From Candidatus Poriferisocius sp. (GTDB lineage: Bacteria; Actinomycetota; Acidimicrobiia; Acidimicrobiales; Bin134), in the NCBI RefSeq assembly GCF_965202595.1, contig NZ_OZ241836.1:1360349-1424348 (forward strand): a DNA stretch of 64,000 bases, given 5' to 3'. The notes under the pieces are model-generated. The model was not told where the DNA came from. It did not search any database and saw only the letters and a program-made list of their open reading frames with translations. Position numbers and translations under genes: made by a program. Below, one piece after another: positions 245 to 60,768 of the stretch; the stretch's first letter is position 1, and each line of letters starts with the position of its first letter.

Positions 245-1141
245 ATGCGAGTGGTAGTTGCCGGAGCATCGGGATTGATCGGAACCGCGCTGGTGAACCA
301 TCTCAATGCCGCCGGCCACGAGGTCATCCGGTTGGGGCGCGATCCAGCCGCCCGAGCCGACGACACCCGTTACTGGAACCCGGCCACCGGGGCCATCGAC
401 GACGATGCCTTCGACGGGGTCGAAGGAGTGGTAAATCTGGCCGGTGCGGGGATCGCAGACCGGCGCTGGACAAAAAACCGCCGCCGGGAGTTGCGGCGGA
501 GCCGGGTTGGGGCCACCGAACTTTTGGTTGAAGCCATGATGGCCAACCCCAACCCACCGGGAGTGCTGGTGGCCGGATCGGCAGTCGGCTTCTACGGGGA
601 CCGGGGTGATGAGGTGCTGGATGAGGAATCCGGCCCCGGAACCGGTTTTTTGGCCACCCTGGTTGCCGATTGGGAGGCGGCCGCCACCAGCGCCACCGCG
701 GCCGGTATTAGGGTGGCTCTGGCTCGCACCGGGCTGGTCATGGCCGAGAACGCGCCCTTCCTCACCCGGATGCTGCCCCTGTTCAAGCTGGGTTTGGGGG
801 GACCGCTGGGTCGAGGCCGGCAATGGTGGCCGTGGATTACCCTGGAGGACGAGGTCCGGGCGCTGACCCACCTTCTGGAATCCGACATTGCCGGGCCGGT
901 GAACTTGTGCGCCCCCAATCCGGTAACCAACCAGGAGTTCACCCGGACTCTGGCATCGGTGCTGCGCCGGCCCGCCTTCCTGGCTATCCCCCGGTTCGGT
1001 CCTCAACTCCTGCTGGGTCGCGAATTGGCCGACGAACTGCTGTTCTCCAGCACCCGTGCCCACCCCACCGCCCTCACCACCGCCGGGTTCGAGTTCCACC
1101 ACCCCGACCTGGAAGCCACCCTGAGAGCTCTGCTCCAGTGA
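245..1141 (+). CDS. NAD-dependent epimerase family protein (YfcH/TIGR01777-like, SDR fold)
   Basis: 298-aa ORF with N-terminal Rossmann motif VVAGASGLIGTAL. Length and C-terminal region are typical of YfcH-like epimerases. GC-rich third codon positions. Confidence 0.8.
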   Translation: MRVVVAGASGLIGTALVNHLNAAGHEVIRLGRDPAARADDTRYWNPATGAIDDDAFDGVEGVVNLAGAGIADRRWTKNRRRELRRSRVGATELLVEAMMANPNPPGVLVAGSAVGFYGDRGDEVLDEESGPGTGFLATLVADWEAAATSATAAGIRVALARTGLVMAENAPFLTRMLPLFKLGLGGPLGRGRQWWPWITLEDEVRALTHLLESDIAGPVNLCAPNPVTNQEFTRTLASVLRRPAFLAIPRFGPQLLLGRELADELLFSSTRAHPTALTTAGFEFHHPDLEATLRALLQ

Positions 1142-1436
1142 GCAACCGCCCCCCACTCAGAACAAGCTCTGCTCCCAAGCTCTGCTCCAGTGAGCAACCG
1201 CCCCCCACTCAGAACAAGCTCTGCTCCCAAGCTCTGCTCCAGTGAGCAACCGCCCCCCACTCAGAACAAGCTCTGCTCCCAAGCTCTGCTCCAGTGAGCA
1301 ACCGCCCCCCACTCAGAACAAGCTCTGCTCCCAAGCTCTGCTCCAGTGAGCAACCGCCCCCCACTCAGAACAAGCTCTGCTCCCAAGCTCTGCTCCAGTG
1401 AGCAACCGCCCCCCACTCAGAACAAGCTCTGCTCCT
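1127..1436. repeat. 52-bp tandem repeat x6 spanning the convergent stop codons of the epimerase gene and rnhA
   Basis: Unit gctctgctccagtgagcaaccgccccccactcagaacaagctctgctcccaa starts at 1127, 1179, 1231, 1283, 1335 and 1387. Each unit contains ...ctccagTGA (epimerase end) and TCAgaacaagctctgctcc (reverse complement of the rnhA end). Confidence 0.92.
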
Positions 1437-1875
1437 CCACCTGGTACTGCTGATCGGCGGCTTCGGTGGCCAGACGGTCGGCCTCTTCGTTCCAGTAATC
1501 CCCGGAATGGCCCTTAACCTTGTGAAAAACAATGGATCGAGTTTGAAACTGCTCAATGATCTGCATCCACAGATCGCGATTGGCCACCGGCTTCTTGTCA
1601 GCCGTTCGCCAACCCCGGCGGAGCCACCCCTGCCACCACTCATCGCGAAAGCAGTTGACCACATAGGTCGAGTCGCTGTACACCTCCAGTGGCCCATCCA
1701 ACGCCAGCAGCGCCTCCCGCACGCCCATCAGCTCCATCCGGTTGCTGGTGGTCTGTGGGGCACCGCCCGACCCGGACCGCCCATCGGGAACCACCCAGGC
1801 CCACCCTCCGGGACCGGGATTGCCCCGGCAAGCCCCATCGGTGTACACCACCGTGGGTTTCTCTGATTCGGTCAT
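1417..1875 (-). CDS. rnhA: ribonuclease HI
   Basis: 152-aa ORF with RNase H motifs: VYTDGACRGNPGPGGWA, NRMEL, VYSDSTYV, KVKGHSG...NEEADRLA. Confidence 0.9.
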   Translation of the reverse strand: MTESEKPTVVYTDGACRGNPGPGGWAWVVPDGRSGSGGAPQTTSNRMELMGVREALLALDGPLEVYSDSTYVVNCFRDEWWQGWLRRGWRTADKKPVANRDLWMQIIEQFQTRSIVFHKVKGHSGDYWNEEADRLATEAADQQYQVEEQSLF

Positions 1876-1971
1876 CTTCCTATGCTATAAGTATTGGTGC
1901 TTGGACTGGGTAATGGTCGGTGAATTTTTTTGACTCCGGCATCTTTCTGTGCTGGCAAAACAAACCCCGGA

Positions 1972-2053
1972 ATTGAAACCATTGCGCCGTGACCATGAAT
2001 TTTTCCCACCAAATTGAAAGCATTGTGCCGTGACCATGAATTTTTCCCACCAA
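1972..2053. repeat. 41-bp tandem duplication (x2) of the aceE start region
   Basis: attgaaa(c/g)cattg(c/t)gccgtgaccatgaatttttcccaccaa occurs at 1972-2012 and 2013-2053. The second copy holds the aceE GTG at 2030. Confidence 0.88.
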
Positions 2054-6083: not shown

Positions 6084-6192
6084 GATGAGGGTTCCAACTT
6101 TGGAAGCACCGCCGCTGAAGGCAGAGATGGGGCGAGCACCGGACACGCGGTGATGGATGAAGGTTCCAACTTTGAAAGCACCGCAGCCGGTA
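6084..6192. repeat. direct repeat pair, 72-bp offset, in a divergent intergenic region
   Basis: gatga(g/a)ggttccaactttg(g/a)aagcaccgc occurs at about 6084 and 6156. A weaker third echo lies at the SDR start (6198). Confidence 0.65.
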
Positions 6193-6995: not shown

Positions 6996-7103
6996 GGATG
7001 AAAGGTGCGCGTTCGCAAACCCGACACCGGGCGTGTCGAACCCATCGGATGATCCAGCAACTCGCGGGGATGAAAGGTGCGCGTTCGCAAACCCGACACC
7101 GGG
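6996..7103. repeat. 36-nt direct repeat pair, 72-bp offset, between the SDR gene and rpe
   Basis: ggatgaaaggtgcgcgttcgcaaacccgacaccggg occurs at 6996-7031 and 7068-7103 with an unrelated 36-nt filler. Confidence 0.88.
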
Positions 7104-7115: not shown

Positions 7116-7787
7116 ATGGCCTTTGAGGTGCTGATCGCCCCCTCGGTGCTACCTGCCGATTTTGCCCGCTTGGGCGAGGAGTGCACCGGTTTGGAGAAGG
7201 CCGGGGCCGACCGGATCCACTGGGACGTGATGGATGGGCGGTTCGTGCCCAACCTCACCTTCGGCCCCGACGTGATCGCCTCCGTCCGACCCCTGGTATC
7301 GCTACCGTTCGAGGCTCACCTGATGGTCGAGGCTCCCCATGAGCTGGCCCACCGTTACGCGGCGGCGGGCTGCGACCTGCTCACCGTACATGTCGAGGCC
7401 TGCCCCCACCTGCACCGCACGCTGGGAGCTGTTCGAGAATTGGGGATGGACGCCGGTGTAGCCCTGAACCCAGCCACCCCGGCATCGGCGGTGGCCCATG
7501 TACTGGATCTGTGTCAACTGGTGCTGGTGATGACCGTCAACCCCGGCTGGGGTGGCCAGTCCTACATCGCCGCCATGGAATCCAAAGTGGCCGAAGTCCG
7601 GGCGATGATCGACGAGGGTGGCCACGATGTGAAAGTAGAGGTGGACGGTGGCATCGGCCCGGTCACCATCACCGCCGCCGCCCGGGCCGGGGCCGAGGTG
7701 TTCGTGGCCGGAAGCGCGGTGTTCTCCGACAACCTGGGGTTCGACCACGCGATCACCGAGTTGCGGAGAGCAGCCACCGGCCACTGA
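7116..7787 (+). CDS. rpe: ribulose-phosphate 3-epimerase
   Basis: 223-aa ORF with IAPSVLPADFARLGEE...HWDVMDGRFVPNLTFG and VMTVNPGWGGQ motifs. Confidence 0.93.
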   Translation: MAFEVLIAPSVLPADFARLGEECTGLEKAGADRIHWDVMDGRFVPNLTFGPDVIASVRPLVSLPFEAHLMVEAPHELAHRYAAAGCDLLTVHVEACPHLHRTLGAVRELGMDAGVALNPATPASAVAHVLDLCQLVLVMTVNPGWGGQSYIAAMESKVAEVRAMIDEGGHDVKVEVDGGIGPVTITAAARAGAEVFVAGSAVFSDNLGFDHAITELRRAATGH

Positions 7788-7840
7788 CCATGCAAAACCG
7801 GCAGGAATGCGATCACCGAGTTGCGGAGAGCAGCCACCGG
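7749..7840. repeat. 32-nt direct repeat pair, 60-bp offset, of the rpe 3' end
   Basis: gcgatcaccgagttgcggagagcagccaccgg occurs at 7749-7780 (true rpe end) and 7809-7840. Confidence 0.9.
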
Positions 7841-8319: not shown

Positions 8320-8414
8320 ACGATGACGTGGTCAATAATGCCGGGCCCGCAGACACCACCACACCGAATCAGATCATCTCACCGCGCTTGACGATGACGT
8401 GGTCAATAATGCCG
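8320..8414. repeat. 24-nt direct repeat pair, 71-bp offset, of a clpP 3'-proximal segment
   Basis: acgatgacgtggtcaataatgccg occurs at 8320-8343 (intergenic) and 8391-8414 (inside clpP, codons for IIDHVIV). Confidence 0.85.
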
Positions 8415-8993: not shown

Positions 8994-9082
8994 CCATCCA
9001 ACCCCGACCCCACCCCAAAAGTGCGCCAGGTGGGACACCCCCATCCAACCCCGACCTCACCCCAAAAGTGCGCCAGGTGGGA
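8994..9082. repeat. 42-nt direct repeat pair, 47-bp offset, duplicating the 3' 14 nt of tRNA-Leu plus 28 nt downstream
   Basis: ccatccaaccccgacc(c/t)caccccaaaagtgcgccaggtggga occurs at 8994-9035 and 9041-9082. Confidence 0.88.
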
Positions 9083-9153
9083 CTCGAACCCACACGGGCT
9101 TTCGCCCACAGGGACCTAAACCCTGCACGTCTGCCGAATTCCGCCACTGGCGC
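9069..9153 (-). tRNA. tRNA-Leu (anticodon UAG), type II with long variable arm
   Basis: Manual cloverleaf: acceptor GCGCCAG/CTGGCGC; 3-bp D stem; anticodon stem CAGGG/CCCTG with loop TT-TAG-GT; variable arm TGGGCGAAAGCCCGT; T arm GTGGG-TTCGAGT-CCCAC; discriminator A. CCA is not encoded. Confidence 0.87.
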
Positions 9154-9167: not shown

Positions 9168-9830
9168 TTATAGGCCGAGTCGGGTGGCAAGGGCGCGGAA
9201 TGCTCGGCCTCGATGGGACAGGGCGTTCTTCTCCCCAGCCGGCATTTCGGCAAAGGTTCGCCCCCCTCCCCCTTCGGGAACGAAAATCGGGTCGTAACCG
9301 AACCCCCGATCACCCCTCGGGACCGTGGCGATGCTGCCGGCGACAACCCCCTCGGCCATCACCTCGGTGCCATCGGGGAAGATCACCACCGCCACCGTGC
9401 GAAAGCGGGCCGACCGGTTGGACACTCCCTCCATGGCGGCCAACAACCGGGCTCTGTTGGCAGCATCGTCAGCGTGGTCGCCGGCGTAGCGGGCCGACCG
9501 CACTCCTGGATCACCCCCCAGAGCGGTCACTTCCAAGCCAGTGTCGTCGGCCACTGCGGCCTGGCCGGTGTGCCGGCACACCGCGGCCGCTTTCAGCCGG
9601 GCGTTGGCCTCGAGGGTGTCGCCGTCCTCAACCACCTCTCCCAAATCACCGGGCCGAGCCAACAGTTCCACGACTGGTCCTGAAACGGTCGATCCCGAAG
9701 GCCTCGCCACTGACCCCGAAACAGTTGATTCCAAAACCGCTGACTCCAGGATGGTGGCGATTTCAGCCAGTTTGTGGGGATTGGCAGTGGCCGATACCAA
9801 CCGCAGCCGAGGCGGGTCGGCCAACCGCAT
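9168..9830 (-). CDS. rdgB: non-canonical purine NTP pyrophosphatase (RdgB/HAM1 family)
   Basis: Motifs SATANPHKLAEI, EDGDTLEANARLKA, ADDTGLEV, FGYDPIF and SHRGRA. I set the start at Met-59 of the ORF (9830), just after the rph stop. Confidence 0.88.
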   Translation of the reverse strand: MRLADPPRLRLVSATANPHKLAEIATILESAVLESTVSGSVARPSGSTVSGPVVELLARPGDLGEVVEDGDTLEANARLKAAAVCRHTGQAAVADDTGLEVTALGGDPGVRSARYAGDHADDAANRARLLAAMEGVSNRSARFRTVAVVIFPDGTEVMAEGVVAGSIATVPRGDRGFGYDPIFVPEGGGGRTFAEMPAGEKNALSHRGRAFRALATRLGL

Positions 9831-9856
9831 AGTGGTGCAGGGCGGCCAACCGGACA

Positions 9857-10597
9857 TCACCGCAGCCGGAGCGGGTCGGCCAGAAGCTGGTTCTGCTGAG
9901 CGATGATCTGCTCGATCCCCGAGCGGGCCAAGTCCAGGAGCGTGTCCAACCGGTCCCGGCGGAACGGTTGCCCCTCGGCGGTGCCCTGAACCTCCACAAA
10001 GCAACCCGATTCGGTCATGACCACGTTCATGTCCACCTCGGCGGCCGCATCCTCCTCATAGGGCAAATCAAGCGACGGCGTACCGTTGACGATCCCCACC
10101 GACACCGCAGCACACGCCTCTGTGATGGGGTGCTGGTCGATCTCGCCCCGGGCCAGCAACCGGGTGAAGGCATCGTGCAGGGCGATGTAGGCCCCGCTGA
10201 TGGCGGCGGTGCGGGTACCGCCATCGGCCTGCAACACATCGCAGTCGCAGACCACTTGACGTTCCCCCAACCTGGTGGCATCGGTCACCGCCCGCAGGGA
10301 GCGTCCGATCAGCCGCTGTATCTCCTGGGTGCGACCTGATTGGCGGCCCCGAGCCGCTTCCCGGTTGACCCGCTCGGATGACGAGCCCGGAAGCATGGAG
10401 TACTCGGCGGTGACCCAGCCTCTGCCCTGTCCTCTCATCCAGCGGGGAACCGAACGATCAACCGATGCCGTGCACAACACCCGGGTACGCCCGAACGAGA
10501 CCAGCACCGATCCATCGGCCATCTCGGTGAAGTCCCGCTCAAAGCCGATGGGCCGCAACTCATCAAAGGCCCGACCATCACCTCTCATACTGCTCAT
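9857..10597 (-). CDS. rph: ribonuclease PH
   Basis: 246-aa ORF with [42 protein letters not shown] and [14 protein letters not shown]. Confidence 0.93.
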
Positions 10598-12564: not shown

Positions 12565-12667
12565 TCAGGCTACTCCCCCACCGCCACCGGCTCCTCCATG
12601 GTGCGACATATCGTCCATTTCGGAGGGGTCACGCTTCAGGCTACTCCCCCACCGCCACCGGCTCCTC
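12565..12667. repeat. 32-nt direct repeat pair, 71-bp offset, of the mec 3' end including its stop
   Basis: tcaggctactcccccaccgccaccggctcctc occurs at 12565-12596 and 12636-12667. The second copy carries the mec TAG (12641-12643). Confidence 0.9.
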
Positions 12668-14856: not shown

Positions 14857-14954
14857 CAGGCGCTCAGGTGTCCAGGAACCGCTAGGGGCGGTGCTGGTGG
14901 GTCTCCATGGCCGCGTCGGGGGCAACCACCAGGCACTCAGGTGTCCAGGAACCG
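14857..14954. repeat. 25-nt direct repeat pair, 73-bp offset, of the ftsX 3' end including its stop
   Basis: caggc(g/a)ctcaggtgtccaggaaccg occurs at 14857-14881 and 14930-14954. The second copy carries the ftsX stop (14937-14939). Confidence 0.85.
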
Positions 14955-15830
14955 GCTGACCGCGATACCCGAGCCCACCGTGCCCACAACCGCACCCAGG
15001 CCCACCATCTGGAAGCCCAGCGTCCATACCCGGGAGGGATCGACGGTGAAACCCCGCAAGAGCTCCAGCGAAACGTCGTCGTTGATCACCCTGAAGAAGT
15101 TGTTGGTCAACCAGATCAGCGGTATGGCGATCACCCCGCCTATGAGCCCCTGAATGAGTCCCTCGAACATGAACGGCACCCGGATGAACCAGTTGGTGGC
15201 CCCCACCAGCTTCATCACCTCTATGTCCCGCCGGCGGGAGAACAGGGCCATGCGGATGGTGTTCAGAATCAGCACCGCCGCGACCACCAGCAAGATGATG
15301 GCGATGATGATCACCCTCTGGCGCAGCCCGCTGGACAGGTCCTCGATGGCCCGTATGGTCTCGCTGGCCGTGACCACCTTGGCCACCCCGGGTTGGGTCC
15401 GAAAGGCACCGGCCAGCTCGTCCACCCGCTCCGGCAGGGTATCGGTGGGCCTGACCCTGAACGATGCCGGCAGCCGCTCGGGAGTGATCACGCTCACCAG
15501 CTCGGGGGAGTCCCCCAGCAGGTCCTGCACCTCGGCGTAGGCCTCGTCCTTGCCCACATGGGTGAACCCGCTGATCTCGGGGGAGTTCTCCAGTTGGCGG
15601 CGGATGTCGGCCTCCAGCTCGGGAGTGATGTCGGGGTCCATGAACACGATGAACTCCACCCCGTCCTTCCAGCGGACGGTGGCGTTGTCCACCGCGTCGC
15701 CAAACAGCAGGGCCGCGCCCAGAAGCGTCAGCGAAACCGTGACGGTGATTACGGTGGCCAGGGTTAGGGTTATGTTGCGACGGAAGTTGCCGACCGTCTC
15801 CCGCAGGACGTAGTCCAACCTGAGGTTCAT
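14937..15830 (-). CDS. ftsX: cell division permease-like protein FtsX
   Basis: 297-aa ORF with four predicted TM segments and a large first extracellular loop, directly downstream of ftsE. Confidence 0.92.
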   Translation of the reverse strand: MNLRLDYVLRETVGNFRRNITLTLATVITVTVSLTLLGAALLFGDAVDNATVRWKDGVEFIVFMDPDITPELEADIRRQLENSPEISGFTHVGKDEAYAEVQDLLGDSPELVSVITPERLPASFRVRPTDTLPERVDELAGAFRTQPGVAKVVTASETIRAIEDLSSGLRQRVIIIAIILLVVAAVLILNTIRMALFSRRRDIEVMKLVGATNWFIRVPFMFEGLIQGLIGGVIAIPLIWLTNNFFRVINDDVSLELLRGFTVDPSRVWTLGFQMVGLGAVVGTVGSGIAVSRFLDT

Positions 15831-15883
15831 CGACCCTTGCCCGCCGATCCACCCCCGTAAGTGGAACCCCTCTGGACCATCGG

Positions 15884-16682: not shown

Positions 16683-16857
16683 ATCACGATAGCCGCTTCC
16701 ACCGCAAATAGGCCTCGATCACGATAGCCGCTTCCACCGCAAATAGGCCTCGATCACGATAGCCGCTTCCACCGCAAATAGGCCTCGATCACGATAGCCG
16801 CTTCCACCGCAAATAGGCCTCGATCACGATAGCCGCTTCCACCGCAAGTAGGCCTCG
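16683..16857. repeat. 35-bp tandem repeat x5 of the prfB 3' end including its stop codon
   Basis: atcacgatagccgcttccaccgcaa(a/g)taggcctcg starts at 16683, 16718, 16753, 16788 and 16823. The fifth copy is the real gene end (stop 16824-16826). Confidence 0.93.
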
Positions 16858-17924
16858 ATCAACTGGTCGAGATCGCCGGCCAGCACCCCGTCCACGTTGC
16901 CGATCGATACTCCGGTGCGATCGTCCTTGACCTGCTGGTAGGGATGCAGCACGTATGAACGGATCTGACTACCCCATTCCGCCTTCATGTAGTCGCCGGC
17001 CAGACCGGCCAGCTCGGCCTCCCGCTCGGCTCGAATCCGGTCGGCCAGGCGGGCGGCCAGTATCTGCATGGCTCGGTCCTTGTTCTGGTGCTGGCTGCGC
17101 TCATTCTGGCACGACACCACTATGCCGGTGGGCAAGTGGGTTATCCGCACCGCCGAATCGGTCACGTTGACGTGCTGGCCGCCCGCTCCCGACGACCTGA
17201 ACGTGTCGATCCGCAGGTCCTTGTCGTCGATGTCCACCTCGTCCGACACCTCGTCGAAGAACGGCACCACCTTGAACTGGGCGAACGCGGTGTGGCGGCG
17301 GGCATCCGAGTCGAACGGCGAGATACGAACCAGCCGATGAACCCCCCGCTCCGATTGCAGCAGCCCGTAGGCGTTGCGTCCCGAGATGGTGAACTCGGCC
17401 GAGGATATACCCGCCCCCTGCCCCTCGGATACCGAGTCAACCTTGAATTTGAAGCCCCGTCGGTCGGACCACCCCCGGTACATGGCCAGCAGCATCTCGG
17501 CCCAGTCCTGGGCGTCGGTGCCCCCCGCACCGCTGTGAATCTCGCACACCGCGTCGGATCCGTCATGCTCGCCCCCCAGCAGCGACCGCAGCTCCAACTC
17601 GTCCACCTTGGCAGCCAGGGTGGCCAGCATCTGGGAGATCTCCGGGACCAGTGATTCGTCACCCTCCTCGGTTGCCAGCAGGTGCAGCGTGTCGGCATCC
17701 TCCAGCGCCGCTTCCAGCTCGGCAAACAGCTCCAGATCCTCAACCAGCTCCGACAGCTCCCTGGTGACCCTGCGAGCCCGGTCGGGGTCGTCCCATAATC
17801 CGGGAGCAGCGGCCGCGGCCTCCAGCTCGGGGCGGCGGAGGGTCAAGTCGCCGATGCGCAGGTAGTGGCGGGCCCCGTCCAATTTGGTGCGAAGCAAGGC
17901 GATATCGTCGAAGAAATCAGGCAC
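16824..17924 (-). CDS. prfB: peptide chain release factor 2
   Basis: 366-aa ORF with an SPF-region and the GGQ motif (SGAGGQHVNVTDSAVRITHLPTG). The frame is uninterrupted. Confidence 0.93.
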   Translation of the reverse strand: MPDFFDDIALLRTKLDGARHYLRIGDLTLRRPELEAAAAAPGLWDDPDRARRVTRELSELVEDLELFAELEAALEDADTLHLLATEEGDESLVPEISQMLATLAAKVDELELRSLLGGEHDGSDAVCEIHSGAGGTDAQDWAEMLLAMYRGWSDRRGFKFKVDSVSEGQGAGISSAEFTISGRNAYGLLQSERGVHRLVRISPFDSDARRHTAFAQFKVVPFFDEVSDEVDIDDKDLRIDTFRSSGAGGQHVNVTDSAVRITHLPTGIVVSCQNERSQHQNKDRAMQILAARLADRIRAEREAELAGLAGDYMKAEWGSQIRSYVLHPYQQVKDDRTGVSIGNVDGVLAGDLDQLIEAYLRWKRLS

Positions 17925-20710: not shown

Positions 20711-20778
20711 GCCGGGCTCAGGCAGGTAAAGGCAGACCCCGCAGCCGGGCTCAGGCAGGCAAGGGTAGACCCCCGCGG
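20711..20778. repeat. 33-bp tandem duplication (x2) between secA and hpf
   Basis: gccgggctcaggcagg(t/c)aa(a/g)gg(c/t)agacccc occurs at about 20711 and about 20744. Confidence 0.7.
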
Positions 20779-20823
20779 CCGACCCCGAGCAGGCGAGAGC
20801 CACCCCCGCCACCCGCGGTCGGC

Positions 20824-23180: not shown

Positions 23181-23193
23181 AACCTGCCTAGAG

Positions 23194-24528: not shown

Positions 24529-24555
24529 CAGTAAGGAGAAAATTAAAGCAATTTA

Positions 24556-25410: not shown

Positions 25411-25428
25411 ATAAAATCTTGGTATAAA

Positions 25429-27375: not shown

Positions 27376-27385
27376 GGGTACACCC

Positions 27386-36927: not shown

Positions 36928-36973
36928 CCATGAAATCGCAATGAACACAAAGCAGCAAACGGCCCAGGAGGAT

Positions 36974-40057: not shown

Positions 40058-40780
40058 CTAGATTCCCTTACGTCTGGGCGTTGCCGGAGAAGCGACTGAG
40101 GGTACGGCCTTCGACAGGTCCTGTTCGTGCTCGGCATCGGATCGGGGTACTCCCGCTCGGGTGGGCAGGCTCCCCTTCCCCTGCCACACACCGGATGCCT
40201 TGAGGTAAAGCGGCACCTTTTCGGTCTCTCGAACATGAGTCTGGATCCTTGTCTGGGGAACGATGCCGAAGCGCTCCGCAATGGCGAGGAGCTCCCGGCG
40301 TATATCAGTAGCGCCCTTTGCTATCAATAAGAGCGGTGATCTGTCTGGGTCGAGACCCCGCAGAATTCCGCGCGCGTGCTCACCGAACTCATTCGCTGAC
40401 CAGTCAGCGGTGTCGGCCAATACCCGAAGAGCCCGCAAGCGTTCCTCAGTTGGGCGGATCTCTCCCTTAACGAATCCTGACAGTGAACGCCGGTCAACCC
40501 CCATAGCTCGAGCGATCTCCTGTCGTGTGAGACCCGAGCGCAAGACAACCAGGTCACGAAGCTGCTCTACTTCGGCTGCGACTGCTCGCCACATCGTCCG
40601 AGCTGTCGGGAATCGAGTCGAGCTCACTAGATCGGGGACGACTCGGCATCTAGCTGCGAAACCGATATGGTCGCTCGTTCCAAAGGTGTCTTCATTGAAG
40701 AAAGCTGGCACGAGGAGTGTGAACTCACTTGTTTCGTCAACCATGTCGACAGAAGCAGTCAATGGAGAGGTAGTAACCAT
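40058..40780 (-). CDS. XRE-family helix-turn-helix domain protein
   Basis: HTH segment LTRQEIARAMGVDRRSLSGFVKGE. I set the start at Met-17, which overlaps the upstream stop as TGATG. Confidence 0.7.
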   Translation of the reverse strand: MVTTSPLTASVDMVDETSEFTLLVPAFFNEDTFGTSDHIGFAARCRVVPDLVSSTRFPTARTMWRAVAAEVEQLRDLVVLRSGLTRQEIARAMGVDRRSLSGFVKGEIRPTEERLRALRVLADTADWSANEFGEHARGILRGLDPDRSPLLLIAKGATDIRRELLAIAERFGIVPQTRIQTHVRETEKVPLYLKASGVWQGKGSLPTRAGVPRSDAEHEQDLSKAVPSVASPATPRRKGI

Positions 40781-41586
40781 CACGACTTGGCTCCAAAAGT
40801 TGCGATGAACTGGTCGGTCGTGGCCCACCGGAAGTAGCGGTATATGCGATCCGAAAAGAGTTGAACCTGGCCCTGGATGGCAATGGGGTCGAATGGTCGT
40901 TCACCGTGTGAAACATCGAGATCGAGAATCCACGAACTGCTCTCGATCGGATCAATCGCGGGATCAAACGTCGCCTTCGGCGGTAGGAACCCCCATCGGG
41001 CACGCATCGCCGTCTCGTCTGAGAACTGGTAATGGCAATCAGTCAAGCTGTGCTGAAGTCGTACACCGGAAGGGTCGGACACCGTCATGGGTCCGAGCAC
41101 CTCTGGCCGTACCAGTTGCCCAATCGAATCGATGTGCTCTTCGCCCACGCGATCGATATACCGAACGCCAAGCCGCCGAACCTTGCGGGGGTTGATCCAA
41201 GCGCCCAGCGCCTCCAGCAGAAACCCGAGACGGTCAAGAAAGTCAGCTCGGCCCGTATAGCTGTTCGTGGCCAGGGCAAGAAACTCAGGGGCAAGCGCAA
41301 CCTCCCAGTTATCCTCATCGGTGAATCTCCAGACGATGCCTGGTTGCTGGGTTTGGATGCCGGTGGGCCCAATTTCCACTTGGAGCTCTTCCTCTCGACG
41401 CAGGTCGGAGTACAGATTCCGGATCCTCTCCTGGAAGGGACCGACGAACGCGTGATCAGCAATCGAAGCGACCACCGGGAACCGAATTTGAGCCACCACC
41501 AAGCTAAGGGGCGAATTCGGCAATGGGACGGAAGGTACCGCCGGGCCGAAAGGATCATCTACCATGGTTCTCATTATACTGCCCAT
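40780..41586 (-). CDS. TIGR04255 family protein (uncharacterised)
   Basis: 268-aa ORF. The N-terminal PLPNSPLSLVVAQIRFP resembles the family's conserved start, and the length fits. Alternative start at Met-8 (41565). Confidence 0.6.
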   Translation of the reverse strand: MGSIMRTMVDDPFGPAVPSVPLPNSPLSLVVAQIRFPVVASIADHAFVGPFQERIRNLYSDLRREEELQVEIGPTGIQTQQPGIVWRFTDEDNWEVALAPEFLALATNSYTGRADFLDRLGFLLEALGAWINPRKVRRLGVRYIDRVGEEHIDSIGQLVRPEVLGPMTVSDPSGVRLQHSLTDCHYQFSDETAMRARWGFLPPKATFDPAIDPIESSSWILDLDVSHGERPFDPIAIQGQVQLFSDRIYRYFRWATTDQFIATFGAKS

Positions 41587-41767
41587 TCAGGCAAATGGGA
41601 AGTATAATGAGAAGTAGTCTCACAGTTGGTCTGCTGAGCAATGGTCTGCTGGCAAAGTCGGTGCCTTCCGAGCCTCCGCCACAGATGTAGGGTACGCTCG
41701 GTGGCATCACCCGGGACGAGGACGAATCACCATCTACAAGCTGCCATGCAGAGGGCGACCAAGAACG

Positions 41768-42019
41768 ATGACGACACCGAGAAGGGGTCTGCTGTTCCAC
41801 CTCACGCACATCGACTCGATGGTCGATTGGCAGCTCATGGAGGACCAGTGGTGGTTCAACAACACATCTGCCGACCCCGACAGGAAGGAGCGGCGGATGG
41901 CTGAACTCCTTGTTCACCAGCGCGTTCCCTGGAGCACGATGCTTGGCATCGCTACCAGGTCGGAAGCTCGATCCCGACAGGTGTCACTGGCGTTCCAAGT
42001 CATACGTGTCCGACATTGA
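41768..42019 (+). pseudogene. darT: darT remnant (DUF4433 ssDNA ADP-ribosyltransferase toxin) with internal deletion
   Basis: The 83-aa ORF keeps the N-terminal LFHLTHIDSM (DarT HxTHxxN-type start) and the C-terminal RRMAELLVHQRVPW...IATRS (catalytic AEFLV-type block). It lacks about 120 central residues. Confidence 0.5.
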
Positions 42020-42862
42020 TCGGGGACTCGACGATCTCGCACACGTCATTGAGGACCGGGGCATCACCTCTATCGCCATTCCTCGCCTTGGCTGTGACAA
42101 CGGAGGTCTCGACTGGACAGAAATCGAGCCGCTCATTCGCAAGAAACTCAATGACCTGCCAGCGATGGTCCATTTGTTCGTCCCCGAAGGGCCGCTGCCG
42201 CTATGACAACTGCGCCGTTTGTAGGTCCTCCAGGGGATCATAATCTACCGAATCCTGCTGCTATGACCCTTGCGACGAAGCGTCCGCCGCTGACCGAAGG
42301 CAAAGCCGCGTTGATCGTGTTGCTCGACCGCTACTCGCAGTTGGCATTTGGTGCCACCGTCATCGAAGTGCAGAAGTTGATGTACTTCCTTCAGGAAACA
42401 GGGCAGGAGCTGCGGCTCAACTTCGTCAAGGAGCGGTACGGCCCTTACGCCGACAACCTTCGACATGTCCTCATCCGGCTCGAAGGCCACTACCTTCAGG
42501 GTTACGGAGATGGCAGCAAGCCAGTACAGGACGCGGAACCGATCCAGCTCCTGGGCGATGCCGCCCACGAGGCGCAAGCAGCGATTGAGGGTCTCGATGA
42601 CCAGTCGGTGCTTGAACGCATTGATCGCACGTTTGAGCTCGTTGAGGGTTTCGAATCGGCATACGGCTTGGAGCTGCTCGCGACCATCCACTGGTGCGCG
42701 AAGCACAACGATGATGTCGGCTCCGCGGTTGACGCAGCCAAATCTGTGCCTGCATGGAGAAAGCGCAAGGAGCGCATGTTTACCGACGAACACGTTGAGG
42801 TCGCCTGGGACCATCTCCGGCACCTCGGTTGGATTGGTGCCCGCGAACCAAAACCCGCCTGA
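41910..42862 (+). pseudogene. darG: darG remnant (macrodomain antitoxin): N-terminally truncated macrodomain, frameshift at about 42203, intact C-terminal DarT-binding domain
   Basis: Macrodomain C-half: HWRSKSYVSDIDRGLDDLAHVIEDRGITSIAIPRLGCDNGGLDWTEIEPLI. An ATGA junction follows, then a 219-aa ORF with IEVQKLMYF...RYGPYADNLRHVL...VEGFESAYGLELLATIHW...WRKRKERMF, matching the DarG C-terminal domain as I remember it. Confidence 0.62.
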
Positions 42863-43046
42863 TACCAACTATGCAGGAACGTCGACGAACTCCGAGACGA
42901 CACACAACGCAACTTCTTTCACACCCAACACATCCACGTGGCGAAACGGACGGGCAGAAGAGCGGCAACCTACCCTGATCTGATGAAGCTGTCAGCCCCC
43001 TCCCGTACAATCGGTCTACATGGAGAGGCTGCGGAAGTATCAGGTT

Positions 43047-43793
43047 ATGGCTGATCGGTCGGGCATCGAGTGGACGGAGGTTACGTGGAACCCAACCACG
43101 GGCTGCGACAAGACCTCCCCGGGCTGCGACAACTGCTATGCCCTCACGTTGGCAAAACGTTTGCAAGCCATGGGTCAGACGAAGTACCAGAATGATGGCG
43201 ACCCGAGGACCAGTGGCCTAGGCTTTGCACTGACAGTCCATGAGGACACCCTGGCTGCCCCTCATAAATGGAAGTCGCCACGGCTCATCTTCGTCAACTC
43301 AATGAGTGACCTGTTCCACCCGGAGGTGCCGTTCGACTTCATTAAGCGGGTGTTCACCGTCATGGCTGAAACGCCACAGCACACGTACCAGGTGCTTACC
43401 AAGCGCTCCAAGCGTCTCGCGACGCTAGCTGAGCGTCTCGACTGGCCGCCCAACGTATGGATGGGTGTCAGCGTCGAGACCTGTCGCTATGCCTTCAGGC
43501 TCGATCATCTCCGATCGGTCAACGCAGCCGTGCGCTTCGTCAGCGCTGAGCCGCTACTTGGACCTCTGCCGAATCTCGACCTGTCCTCGATTGACTGGCT
43601 AATTGCCGGCGGGGAGAGCGGACCCGGCGCTCGCCCCATGGACGAAGCATGGGTCCGCGATCTGCGTGATCAGTGTGGTACTGCGGGTGTCGCCTTTTTC
43701 TTCCAACAGTGGGGCGGTAGGACTCCCAAAGCGGGTGGCCGAGAACTTGAGGGCGCACTCCACAATGAGATGCCAACCTCAGTAAGGACTTGA
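43047..43793 (+). CDS. DUF5131 (phage Gp37/Gp68) family three-Cys-motif protein
   Basis: IEWTEVTWNPTTGCDKTSPGCDNCYA (C-x6-C-x2-C), FVNSMSDLFH, VSAEPLLGP and AGGESGPGARP are typical of PF07505. The longer ORF begins at 43020. Confidence 0.8.
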   Translation: MADRSGIEWTEVTWNPTTGCDKTSPGCDNCYALTLAKRLQAMGQTKYQNDGDPRTSGLGFALTVHEDTLAAPHKWKSPRLIFVNSMSDLFHPEVPFDFIKRVFTVMAETPQHTYQVLTKRSKRLATLAERLDWPPNVWMGVSVETCRYAFRLDHLRSVNAAVRFVSAEPLLGPLPNLDLSSIDWLIAGGESGPGARPMDEAWVRDLRDQCGTAGVAFFFQQWGGRTPKAGGRELEGALHNEMPTSVRT

Positions 43794-43796
43794 CCA

Positions 43797-44780
43797 GTGG
43801 CACGCATGTGGAGTTTCTGGACAAAGGGCAAACTTGATGTGTTGCGTAGATATCTCGACGCGTACACGACAGCCACCAAGAGCGTGAGCGAGCGCATATA
43901 TTTGGATGCCTTCGCTGGTGAACTTGATAACGAGGAACGCTTGACCGGTGAACAGATTGAGAGCTCTGCATCAATAGCTCTATTGATTGGTAACCCACCC
44001 TTCACACGGGTCAGACTATTCGAGAGAGAAGGGAAGGCCAAACAGTTGGCTTCATCGCTTCACGCTCAATTCCCAGGACGAGACCTAAAGGTCTACGGCG
44101 GCGACTGCAACGAGAGAATCCCAGAGGCACTAGCAGAGTTAAAGGAAGTGAGGTGGGCACCCACATTCGCGTTCATCGATCCGAACGGAACTGAAGCTGA
44201 GTGGAAATCGCTCGTTTCGCTTGCCGGGTTTCGAGAGGCACACCGAACGAAGACAGAGCTGTTCATCCTCTTCTCAGCGCCAATGTTCACGCGCCTGCTC
44301 CCTGTCGACGGCAACAAGGTCCGCCCCCAGGACTTAGCCCGCATCACGGCGATCTTTGGCTGCGACGATTGGCAACACATCTATGCGGCACGCCTCGACA
44401 ACGCAATCACTCCTGGCCAGGCACGCGATGAGTATCTCAATCTCATGCGGTGGAGACTTGAGAAAGAACTCGGATACCGGTGGACGCAGCCTTTGGAAGT
44501 CCGAAATGAACGCGGCATAATGATTTATCACATGGTCTTCGCTACCGACCACGATGCAGGGTACCGGATCATGAAAAGCGTGTACGCACGGGCCGCCGCC
44601 GAGTTCCCCTCAATGGCGGAGCAAGCGCGGCGGCTTCGCAAGAAGAAGGAAGACGAAGAACGGGGCGTGCAAAGTCTGTTCGGCGAGGACGATGCCTTAC
44701 TGCACGCGCCGATTCAACCCGGCGAGCGCTTATACATCCACGATCCGCCTACACGGCCGTGGTTCATGGAGGAGTTATAG
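43797..44780 (+). CDS. tcmP: three-Cys-motif partner protein TcmP (TIGR04474-like)
   Basis: 327-aa ORF 3 nt after the DUF5131 stop. The N-terminal W..K.K.DVLRRYLDAY...YLDAFAG pattern and the obligate adjacency to DUF5131 fit TcmP. Confidence 0.72.
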   Translation: MARMWSFWTKGKLDVLRRYLDAYTTATKSVSERIYLDAFAGELDNEERLTGEQIESSASIALLIGNPPFTRVRLFEREGKAKQLASSLHAQFPGRDLKVYGGDCNERIPEALAELKEVRWAPTFAFIDPNGTEAEWKSLVSLAGFREAHRTKTELFILFSAPMFTRLLPVDGNKVRPQDLARITAIFGCDDWQHIYAARLDNAITPGQARDEYLNLMRWRLEKELGYRWTQPLEVRNERGIMIYHMVFATDHDAGYRIMKSVYARAAAEFPSMAEQARRLRKKKEDEERGVQSLFGEDDALLHAPIQPGERLYIHDPPTRPWFMEEL

Positions 44781-44824
44781 CGGTCCCCTCCGGCGGGGTC
44801 AGCCAAACGGCTACGCTGGTGGTC

Positions 44825-45343
44825 ATGGAGATTGGTCACGTTTATGACATGCCCCCCATGCGGCCCGATGAAGCCAACACCACCTACTTCCCAGCCGGAG
44901 CGATCAAGATCGGGGTGGAATACCGTGATCTCACCCCCGAGGCACTCACCGAGTATTACGGGGGCGACGAGGCCTACGTGGAGGAGTTGCGCCGAACCGC
45001 ACCCCTGGGCATCGAGGATCGGGGAGTGTCGCTGCACGTGTTCGATGCCGACGGCCGGTGGGAGTACCTGCGCTTCGACCTGTTCGAGGATGCCCCCCAC
45101 TACCACTACAACCACCTGGGGGGCGGGCGGAACCACATCGTTCCCTTCGACGAGACCGCCCACGGTCCCATCACCGAGTGGGCAGTGAACAAGATCCGAT
45201 CCGGCGAGCTGGCTCCCATGCTGGTCCAGGCCGGAGGGTCAGAACTGGCCGACGCGCTGGACCCCGATGTGCTGGCCAGAACAGCCGACCAGGTAGCCGC
45301 TTACACAGCCGAACTCCGCAACCGCCTTACCACCAAGACCTAA
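44825..45343 (+). CDS. hypothetical protein
   Basis: 172 aa from Met-23 of the ORF. High GC3 returns to native-like composition. I recognise no family. Confidence 0.5.
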   Translation: MEIGHVYDMPPMRPDEANTTYFPAGAIKIGVEYRDLTPEALTEYYGGDEAYVEELRRTAPLGIEDRGVSLHVFDADGRWEYLRFDLFEDAPHYHYNHLGGGRNHIVPFDETAHGPITEWAVNKIRSGELAPMLVQAGGSELADALDPDVLARTADQVAAYTAELRNRLTTKT

Positions 45344-45370: not shown

Positions 45371-45448
45371 AGCCCGCTTGAGCAGCCCCCTTGAGCAACC
45401 CGCTTGAACAGCTCCCTTGAACAGCCCGCATGAACAGCCCGCTTGAGC
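45371..45448. repeat. 13-bp tandem repeat x6 between convergent genes
   Basis: agcccgcttgagc / agcccccttgagc / aacccgcttgaac / agctcccttgaac / agcccgcatgaac / agcccgcttgagc. Confidence 0.88.
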
Positions 45449-45456: not shown

Positions 45457-46272
45457 CTAGCCGGCGAGTTCCCCGAAGTCCACCTGGCCGGTGATCACCG
45501 AACCCTGGAAGGCGTTGTCGATATTGACATTCACCCCCGACACGAACGAGGCGGCGTCGGATCCCAAATAGGCCAGCAGGTTGGCCACTTCCGACGCGGT
45601 CACGTAGCGACCCCCGGAGTTGGCAGCCGTCCAGTCGATCATCTGCTCACCCATGGTCTTCTTGAAATCGGGAAGCAGTGGGGTGTCGATGGGAGCCGGG
45701 CAGGCGCTGGCAATCCGCACACCGTTGGCCAGCATCCCCCTGGCGGCCTGCATGGTGAAGATCTGCACGCACTCCTTGGAGAACATGTAGCCGTCGGCCA
45801 CCACCTCGGGGTGTTCCTCCACCCAGGCCACCGCCTTGTCCCAGTCGTCGATGGACAGCAACTCGGTGATCTCGGCCTGATGCGCCGGCCAGTTCATACC
45901 GGCAATCGAGGCGGTGTTGACCACCGCACCCCCAGCGGGGATCTTGGGCAACAGGGCATCGGTGAGCCGCATCAACCCCAAGGTGTTTACCCTCATCACG
46001 TCAGCGGGTGAGAAAGTGGCCGCGATGCCGGCATTGTTGAACAGGGCATGCACCGGGGCATCAATGGCAGCCGCCGCCTCGTCGATGGCCACCGGGTCGC
46101 CCATGTTGGTGGGGATGTAGCGGGTGATCGGCCCGGTGGGTTCCTTGATGTCCAGCGCAGTGATGGATGCGGCCCCGAGGTCGGCCAGCAGCCCCACCAG
46201 CGCGGCACCGACACCGGAGTAGGCACCGGTGACCACCACATTGCGGCCTTCGTAACTCATGGGGTTGGACAT
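45457..46272 (-). CDS. SDR family oxidoreductase
   Basis: 271 aa from Met-12, with VVVTGAYSGVGAA, NNAG, and a Y/K catalytic region. Confidence 0.85.
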   Translation of the reverse strand: MSNPMSYEGRNVVVTGAYSGVGAALVGLLADLGAASITALDIKEPTGPITRYIPTNMGDPVAIDEAAAAIDAPVHALFNNAGIAATFSPADVMRVNTLGLMRLTDALLPKIPAGGAVVNTASIAGMNWPAHQAEITELLSIDDWDKAVAWVEEHPEVVADGYMFSKECVQIFTMQAARGMLANGVRIASACPAPIDTPLLPDFKKTMGEQMIDWTAANSGGRYVTASEVANLLAYLGSDAASFVSGVNVNIDNAFQGSVITGQVDFGELAG

Positions 46273-46306
46273 GGGGAACCTCCCGCGTTCCTGATTCGCC
46301 AGCACA

Positions 46307-51216: not shown

Positions 51217-51864
51217 TTGGGTATGCCCAAACCGCTGGCCCTGCACTTTCTGCGGTCGGCCGGCGATGCCGGGCAGCTCCCGGAGTCCCGCTGCGAGGTG
51301 GCGCTGGTGGGCCGTTCCAATGTGGGCAAGTCCTCGCTGTTGAACGCGGTGGCCAATCGCAAGGGACTGGCCCGCACCTCCAAGGCACCGGGTGCCACCC
51401 GGCTGCTGAACGTGTACGAACTCGACGGTGAACCCGGCCGCTGGGTGGTGGATTTGCCCGGCTACGGCTTCGCCAGGGCCCCCAAGGCGCAGCGGGCCGG
51501 TTGGCAGCAGATGATGGACGGCTACCTGCTCGACCGCCCCACGCTGGCACAGGTGCTGCTGCTGGTGGATGGGCTCATCGGCCCCACCCCGCTCGACATC
51601 CGGACCGCCGAGTGGCTGGAGCACCACGATGTGGCCCTGCGCCCGGTGGCCACCAAGGCCGACAAGGTGAAACCCTCCCGCCGGGGTGCCCGCCGCACCG
51701 AGCTGGCCCATGGCCTCGGCCTCGCCCCCGCCGATGTCCTGTGGACCAGCGCCTCCAAGGGCCAGGGCATCCCCGAACTCCGCACCGAACTTGCCGTCAC
51801 CCTCCGCTCCGATCCTTACGCCCGCACCCGGCGAGGAGAAAGTAACAAGAAGTTAAAAAGTTAA
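51217..51864 (+). CDS. engB: ribosome biogenesis GTP-binding protein YsxC/EngB
   Basis: G1 GRSNVGKSS, DLPGYG and TKADK motifs. 215-aa ORF (an ATG alternative lies 6 nt downstream). Confidence 0.9.
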   Translation: MGMPKPLALHFLRSAGDAGQLPESRCEVALVGRSNVGKSSLLNAVANRKGLARTSKAPGATRLLNVYELDGEPGRWVVDLPGYGFARAPKAQRAGWQQMMDGYLLDRPTLAQVLLLVDGLIGPTPLDIRTAEWLEHHDVALRPVATKADKVKPSRRGARRTELAHGLGLAPADVLWTSASKGQGIPELRTELAVTLRSDPYARTRRGESNKKLKS

Positions 51865-51924
51865 AAGAAGTGATAAAGTGACAAGAAGTTAAAAGCAAGG
51901 AGTCGGGAAAAGCAAGGAGGCTCA

Positions 51925-59833: not shown

Positions 59834-59894
59834 CATGCTCCCTTTTTCAAGTGGAGTATGCGGAGCTGGAGACCGGAACCGCGACCTGACATGC
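59803..59894. repeat. 36-nt direct repeat pair, 56-bp offset, of the valS 3' end including its stop
   Basis: (c/t)gcggagctggagaccggaaccgcgacctgacatgc occurs at 59803-59838 and 59859-59894. Confidence 0.9.
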
Positions 59895-59951
59895 ACGAAC
59901 CAGAACTGCCTCACAAAACCACCAACGGGCAACACCCAACCGCGGCCCTAC

Positions 59952-60692
59952 ATGCGCATATACATGTTGAGCCTTGGTTTGTTGGCCGGGGTTCTGGGTT
60001 GGGCATCGGTGGGTTGCGGTGGAGATGATGCCACCACCGTGACCGTGTATGCCGCCGCGTCGCTGTCCGGGGCATTCGAGGACATGGCCGGGGAGTACGA
60101 GGCCACCAACCCCAAAACGGCGGTGAGGCTCAGCTTCGCGGGCAGCGCCCGGCTGGCCACCCAGATAATTGCCGGGGCCCGAGCCGACGTGTTTGCGTCG
60201 GCCGATACCGCCAACATGAACCGGGTGGTGGCCGGCGGGCGCACCGCAAAATCTCCGGTGGTGTTCGCCCGCAACCACCTGGCCCTGGTGGTGCCGGCCG
60301 GCAACCCCGGCGACATTGCCGAGCTGGAGGACCTGGAAGAACCCGGGCTCGTCCTGGCAGTATGCGCCCCCGAGGTACCCTGCGGTGCCCTGGCCCGGGC
60401 AGTGCTGGCCGGCGCCGAGGTCGAGATCGATGCCGACACGGAGGAGACCAGCGTGCGAGCCGTGCTCACCAAGGTGATGCTGGGCGAGGCCGATGCCGGG
60501 CTGGTGTATGCCACCGATGTGGCCGCCGGGGGGGCAAAGGTGTTGGAGGTGCCCATCGGCCCCCAGGAACGGTTCACCGACTACCCGGTGGCCGCCGTCA
60601 GCAATCGGGCGGAGGCCGCCGACTTTGCTGCCTTCGTCACCGGCCCCGAGGGCCGGCGCATCCTCGCCTCCCACGGGTTCGAGACCCCATGA
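59952..60692 (+). CDS. modA: molybdate ABC transporter substrate-binding lipoprotein
   Basis: 246 aa from Met-40, with signal peptide and lipobox (ASVGC). VYAAASLSGAF and ADVFASAD motifs. Confidence 0.9.
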   Translation: MRIYMLSLGLLAGVLGWASVGCGGDDATTVTVYAAASLSGAFEDMAGEYEATNPKTAVRLSFAGSARLATQIIAGARADVFASADTANMNRVVAGGRTAKSPVVFARNHLALVVPAGNPGDIAELEDLEEPGLVLAVCAPEVPCGALARAVLAGAEVEIDADTEETSVRAVLTKVMLGEADAGLVYATDVAAGGAKVLEVPIGPQERFTDYPVAAVSNRAEAADFAAFVTGPEGRRILASHGFETP

Positions 60693-60768
60693 GCGATCCC
60701 CCCAATAGGTCTCCACACGATGCGGGATGTGGTGTCGCCTCCCACGGGTTCGAGACCCCATGAGCGCC
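60666..60768. repeat. 32-nt direct repeat pair, 71-bp offset, duplicating the modA-stop/modB-start ATGA junction
   Basis: tcgcctcccacgggttcgagaccccatgagcg occurs at about 60664-60695 and about 60735-60766, with a 39-nt unrelated filler. Confidence 0.92.

Follow-up and report, generated by a model that had tools for sequence, protein, structure and literature searches.

Close direct repeats at gene junctions of a Candidatus Poriferisocius chromosome, possible scars of small insertions with target duplication

Close direct repeats occupy many gene junctions in a 64,000-nt stretch of the chromosome of Candidatus Poriferisocius sp., a sponge-type member of the Acidimicrobiia (contig NZ_OZ241836.1, positions 1,360,349 to 1,424,348; this whole stretch is called the window below). 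Most of them consist of two near-identical copies of a local sequence (A) enclosing a short filler (B), and the copy-to-copy distance has a marked preference for 71–73 bp. These loci have the anatomy of an insertion with duplication, their fillers are novel, their copies lie in direct orientation only, their occurrence is restricted to a lineage, and their positions follow a pattern of selection. We give an even chance to the proposal that each locus is the scar of a recurrent, lineage-specific small insertion, in which the target site was duplicated around a spacer-sized insert. A possible agent is an integrase of the Cas1-Cas2 type, the enzyme of CRISPR adaptation, acting away from its array.

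Number and Spacing of the Repeat Loci

When runs were merged into loci, the window was found to contain 24 loci with near-exact close direct repeats at offsets of 18–73 bp (Table 1). The repeats were recovered alike by Tandem Repeats Finder, a repeat finder and an offset scan, and each locus was laid out as upstream flank, A, B, second A and downstream flank for inspection of the copies and the filler. Here, A is the duplicated copy of local sequence, B is the filler between the copies, the offset is the copy-to-copy distance, and a locus is named by a coordinate. An earlier note on this DNA, made from the letters alone, had counted about 30 loci and had placed them at almost every gene boundary; the recount gives 24, and roughly half of the native junctions of this chromosome carry such a duplication. 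The window contains 46 exact runs of 14 nt or longer with offsets of 14–400, in excess of a composition-matched null (a mean of 0.5 in order-3 Markov simulations). Close inverted repeats show no excess in the window, the excess being confined to direct repeats, so that only direct copies arise from the process. For the same reason, templated insertion by snap-back or in inverted orientation was dropped as a candidate.

The offset bin of 71–73 bp holds 11 of the 24 loci, where about 1.5 would be expected from an even spread over 33–80 bp (our own estimate). The offset is 71 bp at 8320, 12565, 27442, 35281 (2.5 copies) and 60664, 72 bp at 6084 and 6996, and 73 bp at 14857, 26663, 30167 and 46305; all eleven pairs listed in the earlier note are present at these spacings. 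Within the window A measures 23–41 nt and B 19–48 nt, and the pairs of A and B in the 71–73 bp group are 36+35, 35+36, 36+36, 36+37 (twice), 32+39 (twice), 31+42, 29+43, 25+48, and 24+47. Since A and B compensate exactly in this group, their sum is the conserved quantity, which bears out the previous impression that the sum, rather than either part, is set by a ruler. The remaining offsets are 66 bp (30763), 60 bp (7749 and 32777), 56 bp (32718 and 59804), 52, 47 (twice), 41, 39, 38, 35, 33, and 18 bp. The arrays among them, given as unit length by copy number, are 52 × 6, 47 × 2.6, 47 × 1.9, 41 × 2, 39 × 2, 38 × 2.3, 35 × 5, and 33 × 2, and both the offsets of 56–66 bp and the arrays reported before were recovered. 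The three islands of low or intermediate GC content (21.2–26.6, 39.3–45.3 and 49.1–51.2 kb) contain none of the loci against about five expected, as had also been claimed, and the native-looking DNA at 46.4–59.8 kb contains none as well.

Gene Boundaries and Selection

A start codon, a stop codon or a tRNA 3′-end falls within 16 of the 24 loci; of the others, six are intergenic and two are intragenic. The description of the repeats as copies of gene ends, stop or start codon included, is therefore right for most loci but not for the six purely intergenic ones, which hold neither codon. Both intragenic inserts (66 and 39 nt) are in frame, and none of the 24 loci breaks a reading frame. In a genome that is about 90% coding (our own estimate), these positions imply purifying selection on a frequent insertion process, and point to the survival of scars only where both neighboring genes stay intact. 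The genes of the window are ordinary chromosomal ones, such as those for AceE, rpe, ClpP, RNase PH, prfB, SecA, AdoHcyase, PMI, FtsH, ValRS, and modABC. The nearest named relatives belong to the Acidimicrobiia, Candidatus Poriferisocius among them.

The anatomy at the junctions is often precise. At 8994, the duplicated segment comprises the 3′-terminal 16 nt of tRNA-Leu and 27 nt downstream, and the locus at 46305 starts at the start codon of the gene at 45457–46305 on the reverse strand and has a coding-like B. At both ATGA junctions, 35281 and 60664, the 71-nt unit is exactly a 24-codon open reading frame (ORF) with ATGA at both ends; the units at 35281 each terminate in ATGA over the following start codon, and the insert at 60664 is coupled at its two ends to modA and modB. 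At 59804, A holds the ValRS stop and the old modA start (TGAcATG), and the entire insert of 123 nt is open and in frame with modA. ORFs are present at 12565 and 14857, too, where they obey no consistent rule, and the mini-ORF logic was rejected for these two loci.

The element duplicated upstream of rpe (6996–7031 and 7068–7103), GAAAGGTGCGCG...CCCG.CACCGGGTAGGGTCGG, is kept in the related genomes L085 (about 9968–10000) and L089 (about 9945–9975). Its conservation in three genomes within a variable spacer suggests that it may be a promoter or leader of rpe.

Ancestral State in Related Genomes

The loci were compared with syntenic DNA of five related genomes: L082 (with the Logan strains L083 and L084), L085, L086/L087 (one genome), L088, and L089. 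At five loci (12565, 6996, 60664, 59804, and 30763) the relatives have one A, conserved outer junctions and no B. Because the relatives are single in A and both outer junctions are ancestral, the window must have gained B and a second A at these five loci. The single copy at 12565 is found in three outgroups and that at 6996 is supported by two, L085 and L089 each carrying one A-like element and no B there; L086 is single-copy and lacks B at 30763, and L088 shows a tight single-copy junction at 59804. This comparison had been proposed in the earlier note, and it gave what an insertion with duplication would predict: a single target copy in relatives, and an insert together with a duplication in the window.

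Eight loci (1126, 1971, 4682, 16683, 20711, 30562, 36963, and 37682) are plain tandem duplications without filler, and the other 16 bear a filler. Gene-end tandem duplications are single-copy in relatives at 1971, 4682, 8994 and 37682. The prfB unit is present in five copies in the window vs. two in L086. In the long-read genome L082, a 41-bp array of three copies (15755–15877) is a single copy in L083, a short-read Logan contig with 99.6% identity; either the strains are polymorphic here or the graph assembler has collapsed the repeat.

Some sites have been hit repeatedly. The ValRS/modA junction of the window has the order A-B1-A-B2-A″ with the oldest copy degenerate, and the same junction in L087 has five copies, one of its fillers being 7 nt long. 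The Trm112-PMI spacer of L086 harbors a CRISPR-looking array on the reverse strand (9553–9917, corresponding to about 11284–11648 of L086), in which a 29-nt repeat occurs seven times, its fillers alternating between one of 36 and one of 37 nt. The amplified super-unit measures 131 bp, and another direct repeat, of 24 nt, flanks the array. Independent events in different genomes are found at several junctions. The epimerase/RNase H junction (1126) was duplicated on its own in L082 (57 bp), the Trm112-SIS/PGI-like junction of L086 has an independent A-B-A (41+29), and the end of the CoA-ligase/ATP-grasp gene in L086 has an independent 46-bp array of four copies; the FtsX junction (14857) has its own 34-bp duplication in L085, so that its ancestral state is not clean. 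Such independent events at the same junctions suggest either that tolerant sites are few or that the sites are targeted.

Nature of the Fillers

The fillers resemble neither their flanks nor one another, their identity being at chance level. This agrees with the earlier note at most loci; the exceptions are 8320 and 7749, where B is ancestral native sequence. Fillers as diverged copies of the flanks are thus ruled out at most loci, and the simple reading of the loci as plain old tandem duplications, which such fillers would have favored, is rejected there. Searches of the fillers against the whole window on both strands gave only chance matches, and nothing significant was found among 88 other fetched loci. 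By a k-mer likelihood from models trained on the DNA of relatives, the fillers score 4.6 standard deviations above shuffled sequence and 1.9 standard deviations below random genomic segments. Several have a coding-type GC content at the third position by hand count, the clearest cases being the fillers of 14857, 27442 and 46305 and one of the L086 pair. To judge from this composition, the fillers have the look of natural DNA that is host-like and often coding-like, rather than of random sequence.

The commonest filler size is 35–37 nt, seen at five window loci and in about 10 events across two genomes. The sister genome has fillers of 36/37, 35, 36, and 35 nt with A of 29, 38, 39, and 45 nt. 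Because the fillers of the sister match while its A varies, and the total of 71–73 bp occurs only in the window genome, the quantity that recurs in both genomes is the filler of 35–37 nt. Other sizes also occur, of 39–48 and of 4–29 nt.

Inspection of the printed loci found no microhomology at the junctions. No convincing motif is shared at the ends of A or B, and the inserts share no termini. Two similarities were found post hoc and are not trusted: a 9-mer, GAAGGCAGA, is common to the fillers of 6084 (6113–6155) and 30167 (30198–30239) and is followed by TGGGG at a near-equal distance from the A/B junction, which may be chance (about 0.04 by our own estimate) or hint at one source for both; and GCAAC is seen close to the ends of several fillers.

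Lineage Distribution

The density of loci per 10 kb is 3.1 in the window, 3.8 in L086, 1.9 in L087, 1.45 in L082, 0.5 in L088, and about 0 in L085 and L089. As a control, 1.31 Mb of DNA from other high-GC bacteria has 0.46 loci per 10 kb, most of which are in-frame coding repeats. The habit is lineage-specific: two genomes are rich in scars, L082 is intermediate and three are nearly clean. This contrast in density across relatives and controls supports the former suggestion of a lineage-specific, time-dependent process.

Table 1. Close direct-repeat loci of the window (A, duplicated copy, and B, filler, in nt; offset in bp).
Coordinates	Strand	Structure	Location	Remark
1126–1435		52-bp unit × 6	Stop codons of convergent epimerase (+) and RNase H (−)	
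1971–2052	+	41-bp tandem duplication	Includes AceE start codon	Single copy in L082, L085
4682–4813	+	47-bp unit × 2.6	AceE last codons and stop	Single copy in L082, L085
6084–6184		A-B-A 29+43, offset 72	Divergent spacer amidohydrolase/adh_short	
6996–7103	+	A-B-A 36+36, offset 72	Between adh_short and rpe	Insertion of B and one A
7749–7840	+	A 32, offset 60	rpe/lipoprotein	B ancestral: rpe stop and lipoprotein ATG
8320–8414		A 24, offset 71	Lipoprotein/ClpP	B ancestral: spacer, ClpP last 7 codons and stop
8994–9083	−	47-bp duplication, A 43, filler ACCC	tRNA-Leu 3′-end	
12565–12667	−	A-B-A 32+39, offset 71	JAB stop and upstream of PALP start	71-nt insertion
14857–14954	−	A-B-A 25+48, offset 73	A holds FtsX stop	B like a coding 3′-end, ends in TAG
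16683–16861	−	35-bp unit × 5	prfB last 11 codons and stop	L086 copies diverged
20711–20781		33-bp unit × 2.1	SecA-HPF spacer	
26663–26771	−	A-B-A 36+37, offset 73	A holds phosphoribosyltransferase stop; low-GC island edge	
27380–27548	−	A-B-A 36+35, offset 71	AdoHcyase-phosphoribosyltransferase spacer	Older, degenerate third copy (67% identity) 62 bp away
30167–30270	−	A-B-A 31+42, offset 73	Between Trm112 and SIS/PGI-like gene	
30562–30599		18-bp unit × 2.1	Trm112-PMI spacer	
30763–30869	−	A-B-A 41+25, offset 66	Inside PMI gene	Adds 22 codons in frame
32718–32870		Three copies of 37-nt segment, spaced 56 and 60 bp	Rce1-like/FtsH divergent spacer	
35281–35457	+	71-bp unit × 2.5 (A 35, B 36)	A is start and first 11 codons of AMP-binding gene	
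36963–37076	−	38-bp unit × 2.3	Last codons and stop of CoA-ligase/ATP-grasp gene	
37682–37759	−	39-bp tandem duplication	Inside ATP-grasp gene	Adds 13 codons in frame; absent from L086
46305–46413		A-B-A 36+37, offset 73	Divergent spacer	Older, 86% identity
59804–59955	+	A-B1-A-B2-A″, A 35, B1 21, B2 43	ValRS/modA	Third copy degenerate
60664–60766	+	A-B-A 32+39, offset 71	A holds modA/modB ATGA overlap	Single copy in L087

A Possible Mechanism and Its Agent

If the loci are scars of insertion, the chromosome would be opened with a long stagger of about 24–45 bp, and the staggered stretch would be copied on both sides as a target-site duplication to yield the two copies of A. A short unrelated DNA, filler B, most often of 35–37 nt, would usually be joined between the copies, and events without a filler would produce the plain tandem duplications of 33–53 bp. 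Such a scar could persist in three ways. First, the duplicated stretch may span a gene boundary, so that the upstream gene uses the stop codon in the first copy and the downstream gene uses the ribosome site and start codon in the second. Second, the scar may lie within a spacer. Third, it may lengthen a protein by whole codons in a part that tolerates them. Some scars would later grow into arrays through slippage or unequal recombination between copies.

As the agent of these insertions, a Cas1-Cas2-type integrase working off-array is the best geometric fit, and we regard it as possible, though clearly below an even chance. It would account for the long duplication, the spacer-sized inserts, the direct-only copies, the lack of microhomology and the two-filler arrays, and Cas1-Cas2 has been found to integrate spacers at non-CRISPR sites (PMC6698737, PMC11788318).

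A number of points weigh against the insertion reading or its proposed agent. Across the window and the sister, the duplicated length spans 23–45 nt, whereas the ruler of an integrase should fix A, and A is 35–36 nt in only five window loci. Filler-free duplications of a like size class are equally common, fillers of 4, 7, 16, 19, 21, and 25 nt are too short for spacers, and the 19-nt filler at 32755–32773 of the 32718 locus is an 8-nt tandem repeat, a stutter that looks like polymerase work. To our knowledge, no known integrase geometry predicts that the sum of A and B, not A or B, should be constant in the window. At 8320 and 7749 the filler is the ancestral sequence, only a copy of nearby A was inserted, and the insert has no flanking duplication: at 8320, a 24-nt copy of ClpP coding sequence was placed 2 nt past the lipoprotein stop codon, and at 7749 the signal peptide of the lipoprotein gained about 36 nt in frame (GAAT and the 32-nt copy of A). 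Two filler 26-mers had no match in IMG/VR, and all fillers had none among INPHARED phages and PLSDB plasmids by sensitive BLAST. No cas domain was found among the window genes scanned, in line with the earlier note, and the window has no ku or ligD gene. The relatives show no clear ancestral state at 6084, 26663, 27442, 30167, 46305 and 14857, the spacers being too diverged at 26663, 27442, 46305, and 6084. The previous likening of the loci to Cas1-Cas2 products therefore stands as to the single target copy in relatives and the novel insert (five loci) and the 35–37 nt filler that recurs in the sister, and falls short as to the variable A, the short or absent fillers and the two ancestral fillers.

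Tentatively, and with less than an even chance, the loci could be taken as a chromosome-wide record of off-array, spacer-sized insertions, left either by natural and ongoing ectopic CRISPR adaptation, with raw neo-CRISPR units arising at dozens of gene junctions, or by a new machine that measures about 72 bp, or about seven helical turns. With either agent, activity would be confined to one clade of sponge-type Acidimicrobiia, and its sisters would show none.

Alternative Origins

Error-prone repair of staggered double-strand breaks is unlikely but a serious contender. Nicks on opposite strands, fill-in by an enzyme of, for example, the LigD or primase-polymerase type, and ligation with an optional captured or synthesized filler would yield the same anatomy of duplication and optional insert with no dedicated integrase. 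This would account for the continuum of filler lengths (0, 4, 7, 16–29, and 35–48 nt) and of A lengths, for the stutter at 32755–32773, and for the inserts at 8320 and 7749 as templated from nearby sequence. Both the formation of tandem duplications at paired nicks and the uptake of heterologous DNA during end joining in bacteria have been described. Frequent nicks 24–45 bp apart have no known source, however, and random capture predicts neither the mode of 35–37 nt in the fillers nor the total of 71–73 bp; moreover, pathways that make templated fillers normally give inverted copies as well and use microhomology, neither of which is seen. The earlier note's comparison with staggered-break repair agrees with the data, which do not tell it apart from the integrase.

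[quoted passage not shown] The exact 24-codon ORFs of the ATGA units at 35281 and 60664 and the open, in-frame insert at 59804 speak for it, and for MIRUs insertion at start codons, together with an ORF in −4 coupling, is on record (PMC12548453). The frame and open-ORF conditions could have arisen by chance, with a joint probability of about 0.01 by our own rough estimate; scars at convergent or divergent junctions, in spacers and at the tRNA end cannot act in this way, and related genomes do well without scars. Usefulness concerns the retention and not the origin of the inserts, and is thus compatible with any mechanism.

Ordinary replication errors have a still poorer claim. Slippage, or ligation of unprocessed Okazaki flaps with a length set by the single-stranded DNA-binding protein (SSB), would make tandem duplications, and A-B-A loci would be old ones whose second half has decayed. 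Eight loci are indeed clean head-to-tail duplications of 33–52 bp, and arrays change between relatives (prfB, two vs. five copies; L082 vs. L083, three vs. one), although the single copy of L083 comes from a short-read graph assembly, which may collapse repeats. Offsets of about 35–41 and 71–73 bp recall the SSB binding modes of about 35 and 65–70 nt, and flap-nuclease mutants accumulate such duplications. Nevertheless, the copies of A are 100% identical while B resembles the sequence expected under tandem copying no more than by chance, and B is missing from the ancestral sequence at five loci as judged from outgroups. Simple slippage was rejected for the filler-bearing loci on these two grounds.

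An assembly or sequencing artifact of long-read metagenomics is very unlikely. One could be led to it by the facts that every scar-rich sequence is a long-read contig named in the metaMDBG style and that the short-read scaffold L085 is almost free of scars. Against it, a 36.5-kb contig from another ENA assembly matches 17566–39037 of the window (21.5 kb) at 99.99% with all repeats included; L088 and L089 are long-read contigs, too, and are clean; the 52-bp-spaced repeat of L082 is found again in a short-read Logan contig; the scars follow reading frames and gene boundaries; and older copies have diverged to 85–91% identity.

Islands and Other Repeats of the Window

The low-GC island at 21247–26572 (about 40% GC) carries genes for an ABC exporter of the MacB/FtsX type and its ATPase, a gene for a protein that has a peptidoglycan-binding domain, and three ORFs to which no family matched. 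L086 has a single gene of 366 amino acids there, and the right edge of the island adjoins the A-B-A scar at 26663. The mid-GC block at 39308–45343 (about 58% GC) is absent from L086, where its flanks are adjacent, and the two ORFs scanned in it had no Pfam match. It includes a strong 20-nt palindrome at 41568–41613 (95% complementary, with a 6-nt loop), which may be an operator.

Three other repeats were seen. A 15-nt unit occurs three times in frame, as a 5-codon repeat, near the 5′-end of the S-adenosylhomocysteine hydrolase gene (28987–29031) and is unlike the junction scars. A 13-nt unit, AGCCCGCTTGAAC, is repeated 5.8 times at 45371–45446, in the spacer that borders the mid-GC block on the right, just downstream of the reverse-strand gene at 45457–46305. 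Finally, an AT-rich 18-nt unit, AAAGTAACAAGAAGTTAA, is present three times between two genes at 51836–51894, with the third low-GC island (49.1–51.2 kb) about 0.7 kb to its left.

Implications

If a CRISPR adaptation integrase is responsible, these loci would be the first natural case in which off-target spacer integration visibly shapes a chromosome, with about one scar per 3 kb, and would give a direct view of the birth of repeat-spacer units. If another agent is responsible, the strict total of 71–73 bp would point to a new length-measuring step in DNA insertion or repair. In compact genomes, only insertions that duplicate a whole junction would survive, and some of these would turn an ATGA overlap into a coupled chain of mini-ORFs; such chains suggest a possible route for the origin of MIRU-like intercistronic elements. 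In practice, the scars mislead gene callers, giving start calls that differ between genomes and apparent gene overlaps, and CRISPR finders search for just such a repeat-filler-repeat layout, which in our expectation makes false calls likely. They may also be used as strain markers for these symbionts.

Comparison with Known Systems

For a described equivalent of these loci, only general work on gene overlaps was found in the literature, and each known system shares a part of their features. Ectopic Cas1-Cas2 integration, or neo-CRISPR formation, likewise gives a direct target duplication around a novel, spacer-sized insert (mode 35–37 nt here), in direct orientation only, with no microhomology, with a layout of repeat-filler1-repeat-filler2-repeat and as a lineage-specific habit. 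Unlike its products, the loci have a duplicated length of 23–45 nt and, in the window, a fixed total of 71–73 bp; many of their fillers are shorter than a spacer or absent, and two loci have no flanking duplication.

Paired-nick or staggered-break end joining similarly duplicates the sequence between nicks and allows an optional insert, some of which are templated (8320 and 7749) or stuttered (32755), but it has no known length ruler and usually involves microhomology and some inverted inserts. Integrative elements bounded by attL and attR resemble the tRNA-Leu locus (8994–9083), in that a copy of the gene 3′-end beyond the insert keeps the gene intact; the inserts here, however, are 0–48 nt without an integrase, and no att core is common to the loci. 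A transposable element with a target-site duplication, or an excision footprint, was rejected, as the fillers share no termini and the length of A varies. Minisatellites or variable number tandem repeats (VNTRs) generated by slippage match the eight head-to-tail, filler-free loci with their varying copy number but not the 16 filler-bearing ones.

MIRUs and MIRU-VNTRs, with which the loci had also been compared in the earlier note, are units of 35–77 bp at actinobacterial gene junctions with variable copy number, and the small ORFs that overlap neighboring stop or start codons (ATGA, −4 coupling) at 35281, 60664 and 59804 have a counterpart in them (PMC12548453). MIRUs, however, are members of a dispersed family that have a consensus in common and are considered mobile, whereas here a local gene-end copy is combined with a unique filler, no two loci share sequence and all repeat families are locus-specific; moreover, convergent and divergent junctions, spacers and the tRNA locus lack the coupled-ORF arrangement. 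The comparison thus holds for copy number and coupled mini-ORFs and not for a dispersed family. On balance, we rate the loci as junctional minisatellites or insertion scars, which look like neo-CRISPR but have no repeat of fixed length, and which behave like MIRU-VNTRs.

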